Source: a virus (Duplodnaviria; Caudoviricetes). From it: a stretch of DNA of 38,635 bases. Of the stretch, positions 1,738 to 38,635 are shown one piece after another (the first letter of the stretch is position 1; the number at the start of each line of letters is the position of its first letter). The stretch covers positions 1 to 38,635 of IMG/VR virus record IMGVR_UViG_3300012948_000008; one strand, written 5' to 3'. Under the pieces are notes generated by a model, which was given only the letters and a program-made list of their open reading frames with translations, did not search any database and was not told where the DNA came from. The position numbers were made by a program, and so were the translations under genes.

Positions 1738-3705
1738 ATGACGCCCGCCGCGTCAGTCGAGGCCCTCTTGCACGAGGCGATCGTCGCCGCGATCCCTGAC
1801 GCGCGCTTGAGCGTGCCTGACTGGGCCGACACCTATCGGATCGTCAGTCAAGGGCCCGAGGTGGGCTCGCGTTGGCAAACCGGGCGCGTGCCTTTCTTAC
1901 GCGAGATCCTCGAATGTGCAACCGATCGCCGCGTGCGCGAGATCGTGCTTTGGTCGTCGTCGCGCGTCGGCAAGACCGAGGGCGTTTTAAATAATCTCGT
2001 CGGCTTTTTCATGCATACGGATCCTTGCCCGATCATGGTCGTGCAGCCAACGCTTGACATGGCCGAGAAGTATTCGCGCGATCGCCTCACGAGCTTGATC
2101 CGCGAGACGCCCGTCTTACGAGATCTTGTCGAGGATCCGCGGGCCCGGGACTCGGGCAACACGCTCTTACACAAAACTTTTCGCGGCGGGCATATTTCGA
2201 TCGTCGGCGCAAACTCGCCCGTCGGCCTGGCGTCCGAAGATATCCGCGTTTTGCTTCTCGATGAGGTGGATCGCTTTCCGGTTAGCGCCGGGAGTGAGGG
2301 CGATCCCGTGGCCCTGGCCCGTGTCCGCACGCGCAACTTTGCCGCCTTGCTCGATGCGCTTGTAGTGATGACGAGCTCGCCGACGATCGAGGGGCAAAGC
2401 CGCATCGCCCGGGCGTACGCCGCGAGCGATCGCCGTCGTCTCTTCGTGCAATGCCCGGCCTGTGACGCCTGGCAACTCCCGCTTTGGCAGAATGTGAAAT
2501 GGTCCGATCTCGGCCTCGCGCCGGGCGCGGCCGTCTACGTTTGCCCCGAGTGTAACGCCGTGATCACTGACGCCGATAAGGACGAGTTGATCCGCCGTTA
2601 CGAGTGGCGCGCCGAGCGCGACTTTAACGGGATCGCCGGTTTCAAATTACCGGGCACGGTTTCGCCCTGGATGAGTTGGGGCGACATGGCCGAAGAGGTG
2701 ACGCGCGCGGCGCATGAGCACTCACTCGCACAGAAACAAGTTTTTGTTAACACCACGCTCGGCGAGCTTTGGGAGCCCTGGGAAGAGATCGACAAAGAGG
2801 ATCTCGAATTCCGGCAGGAAGAGTACAAGGCCGAAGTGCCCGCGGGCGTCGTCTTGCTAACGTTCGCGGTTGACGTGCAGATCGATCGCCTCGAAGTCGA
2901 GATCGCCGGGTGGGGTGTAGGTGACGAGCGATGGTCGATCGACTATCGGGTTTTGCGTGGCGATCCCGCGCGCGTCTCGGCCGAGGACGAGATCACGCTT
3001 TGGGACGAGCTTGCGCGCTATCTGGAAACCGACTGGCGGCACGAGCTCGGCGTCGCGATGCGCGTGCGTTGCGGTTGCATCGACTCGGGCGGCGCGTACA
3101 CTGACGCGGTATATAAGTTTTGCAAGCGCGCGGCCGGGCGGCGGCGGCTTTGGTGGGCCGTCAAGGGGGCCTCGATCCCTGGCCGTCCGATCGCCCCAAA
3201 GAAGCCGACGCGCGTCGGGCGTGATAACGTCGCCTTGCGAACGATCGGAACCGAGGTTGCGAAAGATCGGATCGCCGCGGCGCTCAAAAGCGGATGGTCG
3301 CCCGCGGGCGAGTGGCTCGGCGGCCCGGGCGCTTATCATTTCCCGGCGCACTATACGGCCGAATACTTCGAGCAATTGACGAGCGAGCGGGCCGTCGCCT
3401 CTTATCATCGCGGCTATCCGGTCAAACGTTGGGAGCTCAAGCCCGGCGCGCGCAATGAGGCCTGGGACGATCTTGTTTATAACCTGGCAGCGAAAGAGAT
3501 CCTCAAGCCCAACTTGAAACACTATCGCGATCTTTTACTTGAGCGGGCCGGGCAAAAGCCCGAGGGCGAGGGACCGGGCCCGGGCGACGAGGGCGCGAGC
3601 GGGCCGCCGCCGGGCAGCGAAGGGCCCGCGAGCCCGGCGCGAAACCCGAGCGGGCGACCGTTCAGATTACCGCGGCGACGCGGCGGCTTTGTTAGTAACT
3701 GGTGA
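1738..3705 (+). CDS. terL: Terminase large subunit, lambda gpA family
   Basis: Walker A SSRVGKTE, Walker B LLLDEVD, two CxxC motifs, nuclease motifs VDVQ..RLE, IDSGG and NEAWD. Confidence 0.97.
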   Translation: MTPAASVEALLHEAIVAAIPDARLSVPDWADTYRIVSQGPEVGSRWQTGRVPFLREILECATDRRVREIVLWSSSRVGKTEGVLNNLVGFFMHTDPCPIMVVQPTLDMAEKYSRDRLTSLIRETPVLRDLVEDPRARDSGNTLLHKTFRGGHISIVGANSPVGLASEDIRVLLLDEVDRFPVSAGSEGDPVALARVRTRNFAALLDALVVMTSSPTIEGQSRIARAYAASDRRRLFVQCPACDAWQLPLWQNVKWSDLGLAPGAAVYVCPECNAVITDADKDELIRRYEWRAERDFNGIAGFKLPGTVSPWMSWGDMAEEVTRAAHEHSLAQKQVFVNTTLGELWEPWEEIDKEDLEFRQEEYKAEVPAGVVLLTFAVDVQIDRLEVEIAGWGVGDERWSIDYRVLRGDPARVSAEDEITLWDELARYLETDWRHELGVAMRVRCGCIDSGGAYTDAVYKFCKRAAGRRRLWWAVKGASIPGRPIAPKKPTRVGRDNVALRTIGTEVAKDRIAAALKSGWSPAGEWLGGPGAYHFPAHYTAEYFEQLTSERAVASYHRGYPVKRWELKPGARNEAWDDLVYNLAAKEILKPNLKHYRDLLLERAGQKPEGEGPGPGDEGASGPPPGSEGPASPARNPSGRPFRLPRRRGGFVSNW

Positions 3706-3962
3706 TCACGATGCCGAATTGTTTCGCATGTGGACGGCCCGCGGCGCGCTTGGATCGCCAGATCTGGCAATGGGTTTGCGAGGGGCAAAGTGACTGCGGG
3801 ATGAGCTTTAGACGGCCCTTGCGTGATGGCGTCTATCAAGTTATAACGCGACAGTTTTGCGCGGGCTTTGTTCGCGAGGGCGGCGTGCTCGTCATGTGCG
3901 CGCCGATACTCCGAAAACGGATCGAGTATTGGCAAACGTGCGCGCGCCGGATCGCGGATTGA
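3702..3962 (+). CDS. Small Cys-rich hypothetical protein
   Basis: GTGA overlap with the terL stop; CFAC and further Cys residues. Confidence 0.55.
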   Translation: MITMPNCFACGRPAARLDRQIWQWVCEGQSDCGMSFRRPLRDGVYQVITRQFCAGFVREGGVLVMCAPILRKRIEYWQTCARRIAD

Positions 3963-7661: not shown

Positions 7662-7705
7662 TGTTTTTCTTTCCCTTTCTGGCGTCTCGCGCCCTGACAA
7701 GAGAG

Positions 7706-7750
7706 ATACTAGCAAATCATATGATAGCTGTCAAGCGAATCATAGGATTT
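7706..7750 (-). promoter_or_regulatory. Sigma70-type promoter/operator, copy 1 of 3
   Basis: TTGACA-17 bp-TAGTAT with the palindrome ATCATATGAT in the spacer; 38-bp core (7709-7746) identical at 27311 and 28910. Confidence 0.85.
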
Positions 7751-7821
7751 TAGTCAACTTATTTTAGGCCCCTAAAATCGGGCCCAAAAACGGGCCTTTT
7801 GCGGCCTGGGCCGCTACATAG

Positions 7822-27251: not shown

Positions 27252-27307
27252 TGTCTTTGTTTCCTTATCTCTTTGTTTAATTTTGGGCTTTCCGCCCTGA
27301 CAAAGAG

Positions 27308-27350
27308 ACTCTAGCAAATCATATGATAGCTGTCAAGCGAATCATAGGAT
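27308..27350 (-). promoter_or_regulatory. Sigma70-type promoter/operator, copy 2 (drives int)
   Basis: TTGACA-17 bp-TAGAGT, same 38-bp core. Confidence 0.85.
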
Positions 27351-27351
27351 T

Positions 27352-27846
27352 TTATTTAGACGGGCCCGCGGGCCGGGCCCGATGGCCACAAACGATCTTA
27401 TAGCTGAGGCCGCCGAGGTTAGCGTCGCGATCGGCCCGGAGCATCCAATCGGCACACTCGACCGGCGGGCGCTTATGCCGCGCGATTGCCTTTTGACGCT
27501 CGCGGCTCGCGAGGGCGAGGGCCTTGCGGTACTCGGCGAGCAATTGATCGTCCGAGGGCAACGCCGCGAGCTCTTGATCGAGCGCGCGGATCTCGGCGTC
27601 AGTCTCGGCCAGTTTGCGCCGATAGTCGGCGAGCTCGGCGTCGTCGTCGACGCTTCGCCCCAAAATGCGATCGTTATTCTCGCGCCTGGCGACGTCTTTG
27701 GCATAGAGATCGCGGAGTTGCCCGAGGGTGTTTCGGGTGTCTTGCTTGACGGCGACATATTCGGCCTTGATCGCGATGATCTCGGGCCGGTCTTGCGGCG
27801 GCGTGAAAGATGCGCCGAGGGCGATCATTAAGAAAAGCGCTTTCAT
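27352..27846 (-). CDS. Exported coiled-coil protein with signal peptide
   Basis: MKALFLMIALGAS N-terminus; ATGA-coupled; C-terminal Cys pair. Confidence 0.65.
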   Translation of the reverse strand: MKALFLMIALGASFTPPQDRPEIIAIKAEYVAVKQDTRNTLGQLRDLYAKDVARRENNDRILGRSVDDDAELADYRRKLAETDAEIRALDQELAALPSDDQLLAEYRKALALASRERQKAIARHKRPPVECADWMLRADRDANLGGLSYKIVCGHRARPAGPSK

Positions 27847-28849: not shown

Positions 28850-28906
28850 TGTCTGTATTTTCTCGTTTCTCTTTTTAATTTCGGGCTTTCCGCCCCAACG
28901 AGAGAG

Positions 28907-28950
28907 ACTCTAGCAAATCATATGATAGCTGTCAAGCGAATCATAGGGTT
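28907..28950 (-). promoter_or_regulatory. Sigma70-type promoter/operator, copy 3
   Basis: TTGACA-17 bp-TAGAGT, same 38-bp core. Confidence 0.85.
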
Positions 28951-29233
28951 TTATTTGAGGCCGAGCTCGCGGCGCTTTCGGTCCCAAGCTTGATCGGTCG
29001 GGGCGTCGAGAAAGCCGAGGGCGGCGAGGGCTTCGAGTTGCACGTCGCGCGCGCCGCGGCAAATCCTGGGCGGCTTGCCCGTGCGTCGGTTGATCGCGTT
29101 ATTCGCGCCCGTGCTATGACAGATCCGCGAGGCCTGGGAAAGCGCCGAGACGGCGAGCGAGGCGGCGAGATCTCGATATTTCACTGTCAACCCTAAAGGG
29201 GCACGTCGCGCATTGTTTTTTGGCTACTTTCAT
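28951..29233 (-). pseudogene. Zinc-binding phage protein split by a 1-nt frameshift near 29182
   Basis: ATG 29233 gives MKVAKKQCATCPFRVDS; the rest (KYRDL...ICHSTG...ICRGARD) is in the adjacent frame. Confidence 0.6.
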
Positions 29234-30644: not shown

Positions 30645-30977
30645 TTAAGCACGTTGTCGTTTTTTCTCAAGCGAGGGAAAGCGCGTCAACTTACGTTGAC
30701 GCCCGGGCCCTTTCCCGAGCAACTTGCTTTCGAGAATTATCTCCGCGATCCGATACGCGAGAAGCTCATCCGAAGAAAGCAATTTCTTTTGCTCGTCTAA
30801 AATTTCGGGTTGTGAGCGAGGGCTTTTGGATTGGCGACGAAGATAAGTCTTGACCGCGGACCGCAAGAGCATTTCGATCGTGTTCGAAAGCGTGCGGCCC
30901 TCTTGTTTGGCGATCGCGCGGATCTGGCCCTTGAGATCGGGCATAAGTCGCAAAGAGGCCTGGGCGCGTCGTTTCAT
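30645..30977 (-). CDS. Arc/Mnt-like ribbon-helix-helix regulator (repressor candidate)
   Basis: SLRL.PDLK..I..IAKQEGRTLSN.IE.LL. Confidence 0.8.
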   Translation of the reverse strand: MKRRAQASLRLMPDLKGQIRAIAKQEGRTLSNTIEMLLRSAVKTYLRRQSKSPRSQPEILDEQKKLLSSDELLAYRIAEIILESKLLGKGPGRQRKLTRFPSLEKKRQRA

Positions 30978-30985
30978 TGGCCCGC

Positions 30986-31085
30986 ATTCTATCCTGAAAA
31001 CGCGATCTCTTGTCAATACTTAGCTTGACTTGTACAGAAAGTGCACACTTTCGCTTGACATTGAACGCGGCGCGCGTGGTATCTT
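30986..31085. promoter_or_regulatory. Divergent promoter/operator region (genetic switch)
   Basis: Leftward TTGACA-19-TAGAAT (31016-30986); rightward TTGACA-19-TATCTT (31055-31085); inverted repeat GAAAGTG-CA-CACTTTC (31037-31052). Confidence 0.6.
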
Positions 31086-31140
31086 TCGCGCCCCACGCCC
31101 TTCAAGATCTGGCAATCCCCTTGTTAGCCTTGGAGTGCTT

Positions 31141-31386
31141 ATGCAATCCGATCGCAAGACAAAATCCATTTTCATTCGATGCAACGCGCAACTTCGAAGA
31201 GCTCTTGAGAAACGAGCGGCCCGCGATGGCCGCTCATTGTCAAACTACGTGAGATTAGTCCTCGATCGTCATGTAACCGAAGAGCTTACGACGCCGCGGG
31301 CGAAGCGAAAAAAGAGCGGCGAAGCTTCTAGCGAGTTTCCTTTTGCCGTCGTTTCGCCGCCAACGCGCGCGGCCGATCGCGTTTGA
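31141..31386 (+). CDS. Arc-like ribbon-helix-helix regulator (Cro-position gene)
   Basis: GGAG RBS; SIFIRC...L...LE..A..DGRSLSNYV..VL. Confidence 0.85.
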   Translation: MQSDRKTKSIFIRCNAQLRRALEKRAARDGRSLSNYVRLVLDRHVTEELTTPRAKRKKSGEASSEFPFAVVSPPTRAADRV

Positions 31387-32967: not shown

Positions 32968-33672
32968 TTGACTGGCTTTTTGGCGCGTCAGGTTTTGCGC
33001 TCGGCTCTCGATCCGAATCTAAAACCGCTCGCGGTTTCCCTGGCCGTGATCGGCCCTGACGACGGCGCGCGGATCTTTCCCTCGACGCTCTATCTTGCCT
33101 GGCTTCTCGGTCTTGATCCGCGGACCGTGCGCGCCAAGCTCGCCGAGCTTCGCGGGCTCAAGATTATTGAGGCCCAAGGGCGGCGCGGCCGGGCCACTTG
33201 CTACCGTTTCAACGTCGCCAACTTGCCGCGGCGGCCGTCCTGGGCCGAGACACGAAGCGGATCCCTGGATCCGCTTGCGGGCGCGGCGAAGCGGATCCCT
33301 GGATCCGCCCAAGCGGATCCCCAGATCCGCGAAAGCGGATCCCCAGATCCGCCTATGTATAAGAGTGATGATCTAAGTTATGGGCCAAGCCCGCGCCCGC
33401 CGCAACGAAAGCGCAACAAGCTCGCGCGGCCGGGCCCCGAGCCCGAGCGACAAGCGCCGAATAGGTTAAGAGAAGCGATCGCGGCCGTCGATCAAATTAT
33501 GGATCCGCAAGGGTGTCAACGATTCGATTTTGATCGCGCGATCGCCACGATCGCGAGTCGGGCCGAATACGCGGACCGATACCACGGCGAGGATTTTATC
33601 GGGACTGTGATCTTTTACTTCCGGCAAGCTCGCGGCCTGGACCTGGCCGCGGGCGGAAAGGTGAAAGCGTAA
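32968..33672 (+). CDS. Replication initiator (N-terminal winged HTH, lambda O-like organisation)
   Basis: D.G..IFPS...LA...GL..RTV...L.EL...G...Y; contains four iterons. Confidence 0.8.
   Translation: MTGFLARQVLRSALDPNLKPLAVSLAVIGPDDGARIFPSTLYLAWLLGLDPRTVRAKLAELRGLKIIEAQGRRGRATCYRFNVANLPRRPSWAETRSGSLDPLAGAAKRIPGSAQADPQIRESGSPDPPMYKSDDLSYGPSPRPPQRKRNKLARPGPEPERQAPNRLREAIAAVDQIMDPQGCQRFDFDRAIATIASRAEYADRYHGEDFIGTVIFYFRQARGLDLAAGGKVKA
33255..33352. repeat. Four 20-bp iterons, probable replication origin
   Basis: AAGCGGATCCC(TG/CA)GATCCGC at 33255, 33289, 33311 and 33333, followed by a short AT-richer tract. Confidence 0.85.
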
Positions 33673-36066: not shown

Positions 36067-36425
36067 GTCGCATGGGCCAAGCCAAAGCCGCGCGCTTATT
36101 CGGCCGGATCGAAATGACCGAGGAAGAGCTCGGCGAAAATATTCGCGACGCTTGCGAGGCGTTCGGGTGGCGTTGTCTTTGGCTTCGCAAAACTTTTCAC
36201 TCAAGCGCGGGCATTCTCGACATGCTCTTGATTCCGTTACGTGGCTTCGAGCATCGACGCATCTTGCATCGCGAGTTGAAAGGCTACAACGCCCGCGGCG
36301 AGCTCGGGACGTTGACGATCGATCAGCAACAAACAATATGGGATATCAACGCCGCGGGAGGTGACGCGGCGATGTGGGGGCCGCGAGACTGGCAGAGCGG
36401 CAAAATCATCAACGAGTTGCGATGA
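36063..36425 (+). CDS. VRR-NUC (PD-(D/E)XK) nuclease, resolvase-like
   Basis: MTE.EL...I, G..D, RELK, G.L...QQ, W.P.DW. Confidence 0.8.
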   Translation: MSRMGQAKAARLFGRIEMTEEELGENIRDACEAFGWRCLWLRKTFHSSAGILDMLLIPLRGFEHRRILHRELKGYNARGELGTLTIDQQQTIWDINAAGGDAAMWGPRDWQSGKIINELR

Positions 36426-36571
36426 GTGGGCCCGTGTTACAATTGCGATCCTCACAACCGCATCGATCGGCTTTCCAGCAAAAGACCGCTCGATCAAAGC
36501 CGCGAAGCCGGATCTTTATTGATAGGCTTCGCGGCTTCGTGCTTTGGGCCCGGGCCGTATGAATTCACGCA

Positions 36572-37036
36572 ATGATGGCTCGGCGGGCATTATCGAAACG
36601 ATCTCGTTTTCGCGACGCGAAGCGCAGCGCCGCGGATCTCGACGCGCTCATTCTGGCGCGCGAGCTCGACGCACTCTCGGCCCGCTTTCCGCGCTTCTCA
36701 TTCTCGATCAATTCACTCTCTTATCGCGTGCGCTTTCAACTTCGATCGACCAAAGAAAAACAAAAGCTCATCAAGCGCGCGCTTACCAGTTTCGATCGCC
36801 TGGGCCTCGATGAGATTCGCGACGAGACGGGCCTCGATCGGGCGGCGGTGATCGAATGCCTGGCCCCGATGATTAGAGCGAAAGAGATCGAGCTTTGCTT
36901 GCGCGACGGCGCACGCTATCGCCCGCCCGTAAGCGCCCGCCTCGACGAGCTCGGGCGGCCGATCGACTCGCTCGACCGGCGCAACGCGGGCAACTTCGGC
37001 GCGCTCTACTTTCGCTTAACCGCGCGCGAGGATTGA
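36572..37036 (+). CDS. Hypothetical HTH-containing protein (late activator candidate)
   Basis: LDEIRDETGLDRAAV..CL; lies near the end of the early operon; start uncertain. Confidence 0.55.
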   Translation: MMARRALSKRSRFRDAKRSAADLDALILARELDALSARFPRFSFSINSLSYRVRFQLRSTKEKQKLIKRALTSFDRLGLDEIRDETGLDRAAVIECLAPMIRAKEIELCLRDGARYRPPVSARLDELGRPIDSLDRRNAGNFGALYFRLTARED

Positions 37037-37041
37037 TCACG

Positions 37042-37302
37042 ATGGCCAAAGTTAAGATCAAACTAAAGCAAACCGACACGGCCGACGAGGCAACACTCGA
37101 AGCGAACGGATCGCCCGAATGGATCAAAGAGATCATTCCGTTGATCGCTTACGTCGTTGGCGCGATCGTCAAGTCGCGCGGCATCGAGCCCGGCAATATC
37201 GCCCGGGCCGGTAACGAGCTCAACGAGGCCTTTTATGCCGCGACGCGCGGCGAAGAATACAACGGCGAGATCGTGACTGTGACGATCGAGGACCAAGGCT
37301 AG
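37042..37302 (+). CDS. Hypothetical protein
   Basis: GAGGA RBS; its TAG stop lies within the first units of the repeat array. Confidence 0.7.
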   Translation: MAKVKIKLKQTDTADEATLEANGSPEWIKEIIPLIAYVVGAIVKSRGIEPGNIARAGNELNEAFYAATRGEEYNGEIVTVTIEDQG

Positions 37303-37577
37303 GCATGCCAAGGCACGGCGACGCACGCCGAGGCGGGGCGAGGCATGGCATGGCAAGGCCGGGCGGGCTTGGGCATGGCGTGGCGATGCGGGGCGAGGCA
37401 AGGCGAGACTCGGCAAGGCGGGGTTGGGCGAGGCCGGGCATGGCCCGCCGAGGCGAGGCGAGGCGACGGCGGGGCAAGGCGCGGCGGGGCCCGGCATGGT
37501 TGGGCGAGGTAAGGCCGGGCGAGGCGGGGCAAGGCCTGGCGTGGCGGGGTGAGGCACGGCCGGGCAAGGCAAGGCAA
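37297..37577 (+). repeat. GGY-NN pentamer array 1 (candidate guide RNA)
   Basis: 56 five-nt units by hand count, 49 starting GGC/GGT; one +1 register slip at 37467. Confidence 0.9.
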
Positions 37578-37602
37578 TCAAAAGCGAAAGGATCAAAAAC
37601 TT

Positions 37603-38175
37603 ATGACAACCAAAGCGATCAAAACGACGATCAAGGGCATTAGTCCGCTCTTGATGCACGCTTTCCCGTTAGTGGCGATCGAGGCGCTCGAAAAGAAACC
37701 GGCCGAGGTGCAAGCCGAGCATGCGGCGTACCGTATGCCGATCTCTAATGGCGACGTCGGCACGCGGGCCGCGGGCTTCACGCAACCTAATCTTTACATA
37801 CCCGGGATCTGTGTACAGCGGGCGCTCATCGCCGCGGCCACGTACAGCAAGGGCAAGGGCCGGGCCTCGTTGCAAAAGCCCGCGGCCGCTTGCTTACTCA
37901 TCGCGCCCGAGTATCTCGATCTCGGCGTGACCACCTACACGATCGACTCGCGGCCGGTTGTCGTGCCCGCCACGAAAGGGCGGATCATTCGACACCGGCC
38001 GCGCCTCGATGAGTGGCAAGTCACTTTCGATCTTGAGTATGACGATACGTTACTCAAAGCAACCGAGGTAAGAGCGATCGTCGACAACGCGGGATCGCGC
38101 GTTGGCTTGCTCGACTTTCGCCCCGAGAAGAAAGGGCCTTTCGGTCGCTTTATGATCATTGAGTGGACCGAATAA
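37603..38175 (+). CDS. Solitary RAMP/Cas7-like protein (Vipr-like effector), 190 aa
   Basis: GAAAGGA RBS; first strand plus SPLLMH; LYIPG..V..AL; C-terminal Gly-rich loop G..VGL.DFRP...GPFGRF; flanked by GGY-NN arrays. Confidence 0.75.
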   Translation: MTTKAIKTTIKGISPLLMHAFPLVAIEALEKKPAEVQAEHAAYRMPISNGDVGTRAAGFTQPNLYIPGICVQRALIAAATYSKGKGRASLQKPAAACLLIAPEYLDLGVTTYTIDSRPVVVPATKGRIIRHRPRLDEWQVTFDLEYDDTLLKATEVRAIVDNAGSRVGLLDFRPEKKGPFGRFMIIEWTE

Positions 38176-38532
38176 GCCGAGACGAGGTTAGGCCTCGCAA
38201 GGCCGGGCGCGGCGAGGCCGGGCAAGGTGTGGCAAGGCCGGGTATGGCGTGGCAAGGCTCGGCCGGGCGTGGCTTTGTACGGTGAGGCATGGCGAGGCTA
38301 GGCAGAAGCTCGGCGCGGCAAGGCAAGGCCGGGCAAGGCATGGCCGGGCACGGCCTGGCGAGGTAGACCGTGGCTTGGCTCGGCGTGGCAAGGTTAGGCA
38401 AGCAAGGGCGAGGCCGGGCGGGGCAAGGCCCGGCATGGCAAGGCGAGGCCCGGTTAGGTTGGGCTCGGCGTGGCGATGGCAAGGCGGGGCGGGGCGATGC
38501 CTGGCTTGGCATGGTCAGGCAAGGCGAGGCAA
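38176..38532 (+). repeat. GGY-NN pentamer array 2 (candidate guide RNA)
   Basis: 71 five-nt units by hand count, 63 starting GGC/GGT; +1 slips at 38306 and 38477; starts at the first base after the stop codon. Confidence 0.9.
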
Positions 38533-38591
38533 GGGAGCAACACGGCCCAATGGGGCACGGCGCGGCGTACGTTAATTGCGCGCCCGCGATC

Positions 38592-38633
38592 GGGTCCTTG
38601 CCCAAGACTTACGGCCCGAGCGGGTAACGTGCA
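38592..38633 (+). other. Lambda-like cos site: cosQ GGGTCCT and predicted 12-nt cohesive end GGGTAACGTGCA
   Basis: GGGTCCT at 38592-38598, 23-nt spacer, GGG-start 12-mer at 38622-38633 coinciding with the contig ends; gpA-type terminase. Confidence 0.75.
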
Positions 38634-38635
38634 AC

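Follow-up and report, generated by a model that had tools for sequence, protein, structure and literature searches.

VIPR systems are phage-borne and pair a minimal RAMP protein, Vipr, with vrRNAs made of 9-16 GGY/NN repeats (bioRxiv 10.64898/2026.04.26.720920). As described in the text of this preprint and of bioRxiv 10.64898/2026.04.26.720927, one protomer occupies each repeat, the guide reads its target by a code that skips 1 nt, and the outcome is transcriptional repression; VIPR is proposed to be the viral ancestor from which class 1 CRISPR effectors arose, and to be a compact DNA binder that can be programmed, and the tests of function and structure that they describe concern type II systems only. 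VIPR is also treated in bioRxiv 10.64898/2026.10.15.759431 and 10.64898/2026.10.21.760802. The published systems number 667 and fall into types I-VII (bioRxiv 10.64898/2026.04.26.720920), a classification whose main text does not allow membership or type to be assigned to the clade studied here. In published descriptions, the Csm3, Cmr4 and Cas7 subunits of class 1 CRISPR-Cas pair their crRNA contiguously with the target at 6 nt per subunit, whereas VIPR uses a 5-nt repeat RNA and a gapped code.

A VIPR locus on a temperate siphophage

The DNA that we analysed (the window) is the whole of IMG/VR record IMGVR_UViG_3300012948_000008, 38,635 nt from a soil metagenome, with a 13-nt terminal overlap. 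A PHROGs scan of 26 selected ORFs identified terminase, portal, capsid-protease, tail, tape measure, endolysin, integrase and Arc-like repressor genes, and the window is a circular temperate siphophage. No CRISPR array was found in the window, and none of the 26 ORFs scanned against PHROGs carried a cas annotation. As for the host, the relatives search returned none and a terminase scan gave one match at 29%; one Vipr homolog (64% identity) comes from an Acidobacteriota MAG, which is no evidence of the host of this phage.

Other features of the genome were noted in passing. Two divergent ribbon-helix-helix (Arc-like) genes at 30648-31386 probably form the lysis-lysogeny switch. An element of about 60 nt occurs in three copies (7671-7755, 27273-27357 and 28872-28956; 72-81% identical over 85 nt), and the two copies scanned contain a minus-strand promoter-like site, TTGACA-17-TAGAGT, with the palindrome ATCATATGAT in the spacer; these copies are likely repressor-controlled early promoters. 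Three 22-nt tandem copies (33289-33353) inside an O-like replication initiator gene (32968-33672) are likely origin iterons.

The locus of interest lies near the end of the record, and its features are as follows.

37042..37302, + strand: 86-aa ORF, abutting tract T1; no family match; absent among the neighbours of 30 related loci
37297..37466, + strand: GGY-NN tract T1, 34 units, 27 of them GGY; predicted vrRNA that may hold more than one guide
37468..37577, + strand: GGY-NN tract T2, 22/22 units GGY; 1-nt register shift from T1; 25 nt separate it from the vipr start
37603..38175, + strand: vipr gene, predicted 190-aa single-RRM RAMP; thumb hairpin 113-135, G-loop at about 163-183
38176..38305, + strand: GGY-NN tract T3, 26 units, the first two degenerate; directly follows the vipr stop
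38307..38476, + strand: GGY-NN tract T4, 34 units, 31 GGY; register +1 from T3; may comprise two guides
38478..38532, + strand: GGY-NN tract T5, 11 units, 10 GGY; register +1 from T4

Sequence and predicted structure of the 190-aa protein

The vipr ORF is preceded by a Shine-Dalgarno-like AAAGGA (37587-37592) and has a private, low-confidence insertion at about residues 49-61. Its translation contains SPLLMH at residues 14-19, LYIPGICVQRAL at 64-75, SRPVVVPATKGRIIRHRP at 116-133 and AGSRVGLLDFRPEKKGPFGRF at 163-183, all invariant or nearly so across 120 homologs and in the RAMP-type order that a sequence-only reading of this DNA had claimed. In an AlphaFold2 model (mean pLDDT 86.4, pTM 0.81), which describes the protein as a minimal RAMP with one RRM, a thumb and a G-loop, strands 113-121 and 126-135 form a hairpin at SRPVVVPATKGRIIRHRP, where the same reading had placed the thumb. 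Searching with this model, Foldseek returned CRISPR effector complexes in every row listed (top E 4.2e-6, TM-score about 0.5), and ranks 1-24 of VIA-align were CRISPR complexes or RAMP subunits only (top match Z 10.2, rmsd 4.4 Å over 152 residues). The best matches were thus Csm3 and Cas7, at 10-14% identity, rather than proteins of a non-RRM fold. No Vipr chain was among the matches listed by either search; the Foldseek library ends on 2026-04-08, earlier than the Vipr preprints. The RAMP fold of the model and the lack of a detectable CRISPR array agree with the earlier proposal of a stripped-down Cas7-like subunit outside CRISPR. Such a subunit, with one protomer per 5-nt repeat and a bearing on the origin of class 1 effectors, is what the texts of bioRxiv 2026.04.26.720920 and 2026.04.26.720927 describe for Vipr; the proposal was correct but not new.

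Of 1535 candidates from a search of 5.8 billion proteins, 1323 were relatives at E<=0.001; the protein itself aside, the best 120 of the 1323 share 60-70% identity with the query. A profile search gave 4854 representatives at 50% clustering. The protein matches PHROG 4652, a family without annotation and of unknown function, over its full length (E 1.8e-18), while Pfam, NCBIfam and PADLOC gave no match. Among PDB sequences, the sole significant match was Vipr of Escherichia phage SUSP1 (PDB 36pp), with E 6.2e-5 for the single sequence and 4.3e-9 for the profile; hhalign of the family against SUSP1 Vipr (97.2%, E 4.3e-11) covers 159 columns at 26% identity, spanning residues 3-187. In a quick tree, which cannot assign VIPR type, 63 viral loci lie apart from SUSP1 and LESphi2. 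The latter, a Pseudomonas phage (OQ594955.1), has at 1061-2540 an unannotated VIPR-like locus with GGY tracts, a Vipr of 28% identity and, downstream of it, a 163-aa gene; used as a query, LESphi2 Vipr finds matches in 135 GenBank phage records, SUSP1 among them.

According to the text of bioRxiv 2026.04.26.720927, SUSP1 Vipr reads GGY and binds its guide through H17, R138, D177, W178 and R179, and needs both K33 and K82 for repression. The first group aligns to H19 (H in 117/120 homologs), R132 (R in 120/120), D171 (116 D and 4 E), F172 (119/120) and R173 (120/120) of the window's protein; by this alignment the GGY-reading residues are kept. The DNA clamp region aligns weakly: there K82 falls on T80 (T, A, S or V in 117/120 homologs), K33 on a gap, K88 on K92, and R39 near the invariant K31. 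The helical bundle region has about 15 residues fewer in the window's family than in SUSP1 (H19-to-Y65 spacing of 31-39 residues in 119/120 homologs vs 49 in SUSP1), and a GKGRAS insertion is invariant in the homologs. The invariant K31 and this insertion may substitute for K33 and K82, and the invariant K31, K83, K85 and R87 are possible replacements for the missing lysines.

Repeat tracts and neighbouring genes

The five tracts together have GGY in 112 of their 127 units, with positions 4-5 variable. Wherever two tracts abut, at three junctions in all, the register shifts by +1 nt. Tracts with at least 10 GGY units number five in the window, all after position 37200, and none was found in 100 shuffles. 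Same-strand tracts lie within 1.5 kb of the gene in 69/80 viral homolog loci (near-duplicates included), and in 31/32 loci at >=52% identity; tracts on the other strand were found in 0/80. By the criteria used, no GGY tract was found within 1.5 kb in the other 11/80 loci (L029, L033-L035, L044, L047, L048, L052, L053, L064 and L066), whose Vipr homologs may have non-canonical repeats or be orphans. Tract length is 11-34 units in the window and has a median of 16 and a maximum of 81 in close relatives. The downstream tracts of L031 (81 units) and L032 (65 units) are uninterrupted, in-register GGY/NN, far beyond the published 9-16.

One contig covers 36500-38635 with 0 differences and is possibly the source of the window itself. 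Other contigs of run X1 align partially to the arrays and have different flanks, which suggests that the sample contains more VIPR arrays.

A structured tail was not seen after T5, where the 108 nt that start at 38528 do not fold better than shuffled sequence (z -0.26), and an Rfam scan gave 0 matches to the hammerhead or any other family. A short hairpin-like motif at 38544-38568, after the last tract, is common to L001 (about 630-650, after its upstream tract); it occurs in only those two arrays and could be due to chance. No sigma-70-like promoter was found at 36300-38635.

The locus resembles the type II VIPR of SUSP1 in being phage-borne, in having a single small RAMP with conserved H/R/D/aromatic/R guide-binding residues, flanked on either side by GGY/NN tracts, and in having no CRISPR array. 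However, SUSP1 has vap1 directly after vipr and tracts of 11-15 units with conserved tails, whereas the window shows no conserved vap gene and no conserved structured 3' tail, its tracts of 11-34 units are joined by 1-nt register shifts, and its Vipr, at 26% identity, has a shorter bundle with no aligned K33/K82. No gene lies between vipr and T3; the neighbours of 30 close loci have nothing in common with the window's, and this comparison does not support the 86-aa ORF at 37042..37302 as a vap gene. Because no nuclease is conserved next to the gene, the window's Vipr would, by analogy with SUSP1, repress rather than cut.

Compared by figure legends (Figs S18 and S20 of bioRxiv 2026.04.26.720920), the staggered-array and single-guide VIPR systems share with the window back-to-back tracts, a changed register and the lack of a long spacer, but their processed RNAs have 1-nt overlaps whereas the tract register in the window moves by +1 nt. 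A short-bundle, long-tract clade does not come up in the VIPR preprint text consulted, although figures and data files may cover it. With Csm3/Cmr4/Cas7 the window's Vipr shares the RRM core, thumb and G-loop; it differs from class 1 CRISPR-Cas in its 10-14% identity and in having no cas operon and no CRISPR array that we could find. By the defining features testable here, the window locus is a VIPR, and neither a type II VIPR nor a CRISPR Cas7.

Codon phase of the predicted guides and search for targets

We compared six models of the NN dinucleotides, with the last four units of tracts removed and background ORFs called mechanically. A model in which NN reads codon positions 1-2 was the best of the six for 5/5 window tracts and 45/65 close-clade tracts (total log-likelihood +70.5 over mixed phase), its residual dinucleotide correlation was 0.81 vs 0.27-0.63 for the alternatives, and the sense-strand codon model was strongly preferred over antisense. 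It is thus statistically supported that the NN dinucleotides read sense-strand codon positions 1-2, although a purine bias against RNA self-pairing could contribute in part to this fit. The skip would therefore fall on the wobble base, and we infer that only a 1-nt skip allows successive dinucleotides to stay in one codon phase.

Targets were searched for with seven 8-unit skip-1 seeds against viral contigs (84 loci) and one 10-unit seed against metagenome contigs (4 loci); the seeds were exact, which misses mismatched targets, and left T5, T1 units 15-34 and the ends of T2 unseeded. None of the 88 seed matches extended along its tract (best totals 13/34, 11/22, 10/26 and 12/34). Of the 35 matches of the T1 seed, 17 have the motif N-x-D-x-D-G-D-I-I-x-R-G, where 10/12 units (3-14) match, 8 of them forced by the seed, and 3/4 tested T1-seed matches score above the cut-off for Peptidase_S78 prohead protease. 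The longer seed gave no match with the protease motif, and we regard this motif as a lead only for the target of T1. Against 80 related loci the window tracts did no better than shuffles, the skip-3 value of 12 in that comparison being an unmasked array that matched itself; within the window, with arrays masked, the best self-targeting match was 7/10 units under skip 1.

When 123 tracts were compared with 0.52 Mb of related loci, a guide of L056 ranked first, with 11/12 under skip 1; the other skips reached at best 9. Units 17-28 of this tract (3571-3731) match the antisense thumb codons of the vipr of a rival, L021, with the skip on codon position 3 (wobble), and 0/300 shuffles reach 11. The same guide matches the window's vipr at 10/12 and its own vipr at 6/12. 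L056 belongs, at 40% identity, to a sister clade rather than to the close clade, and this match is one among 123 tracts tested. The L056 vipr itself lies antisense within a tail-gene cluster. Guides against vipr genes have already been reported in the text of bioRxiv 10.64898/2026.10.15.759431.

Proposed function and alternative explanations

We consider it highly probable that the locus encodes a Vipr-family RAMP and five GGY-NN tracts, likely transcribed as guide RNAs, which would silence genes of competing phages. The assignment to the Vipr family follows from the RAMP fold of the model, the full-length homology to SUSP1 Vipr, the same-strand arrays conserved in relatives, the conserved GGY-reading residues and the phage context. 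By analogy with SUSP1, the tracts would be transcribed as vrRNA, one protomer would bind each pentamer and hide its GGY, and each NN would pair with two DNA bases, one base being skipped; the resulting filament on double-stranded DNA would need no PAM and would block transcription. Expression, oligomerisation on RNA into a filament and repression by the window's Vipr are thus all expected from SUSP1 Vipr. Several observations weigh against this reading: none of the seed matches of the window's tracts extended into a confirmed target, K33 and K82 of SUSP1 have no aligned counterpart, the tracts exceed the published 9-16 units and show no structured tail, and 11/80 homolog loci gave no GGY tract by the criteria used.

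It is unlikely, in our judgement, that the protein represents a Vipr subfamily with altered mechanics, in which long tracts would form one long filament or be cut without a structured tail, and the shorter bundle would change the handling of the skipped base or favour RNA targets. The reduced H19-to-Y65 spacing, the unmatched K33 and K82 with an invariant GKGRAS insertion instead, the 34-unit tracts in the window and those of 41, 65 and 81 units in relatives, and the preference for the sense-strand model would all fit such a change. However, the GGY-reading residues are all kept, K31, K83, K85 and R87 could stand in for the missing lysines, and a pure codon-1-2 signal is expected from skip 1 only. 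The sense-strand preference cuts both ways, since a guide that reads the sense strand would be unable to pair with mRNA, a point in favour of DNA, and staggered and single-guide arrays are already published (bioRxiv 2026.04.26.720920).

Far less probable is that the phage captured an orphan CRISPR Cas7/Csm3, for instance as an anti-CRISPR decoy, and that the repeats are incidental. The best structural matches are indeed Csm3/Cas7, but the Foldseek library predates the Vipr preprints, sequence homology leads to Vipr, Pfam and NCBIfam gave no Cas match, and arrays co-occur with the gene in 69/80 loci. Open Arg/Gly-rich frames run through parts of the repeats, as might be expected of a GC-rich microsatellite, low-complexity coding sequence or assembly artefact; we give this explanation almost no credence, since repeats of 5 nt in which GGY is fixed and NN varies, on one strand only, also occur in AT-rich relatives (GC 0.37-0.48), and the contig that spans the region, if not itself the source of the window, agrees throughout. 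The survey of tracts in homolog loci and the codon-phase fit largely rule it out.

Implications for the VIPR family

VIPR is a kind of system already known, to which the window locus adds a member and about which it opens no new question of its own. It is conceivable, though we hold it doubtful, that the large environmental clade (1323 homologs, E<=0.001) forms a VIPR subfamily with a short bundle and no vap gene, in which the two lysines essential in SUSP1 are missing and tail-less tracts of 20-80 repeats are used; its guides would then either be much longer or be cut from one transcript in a new way. If this were true, it would be the most stripped-down programmable VIPR so far. The window locus is a distant, apparently accessory-free VIPR with a reduced bundle and long tracts, and the temperate phage that carries it is complete. 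It lends itself to testing whether all VIPR systems share the one-base-skip code and the DNA clamp.
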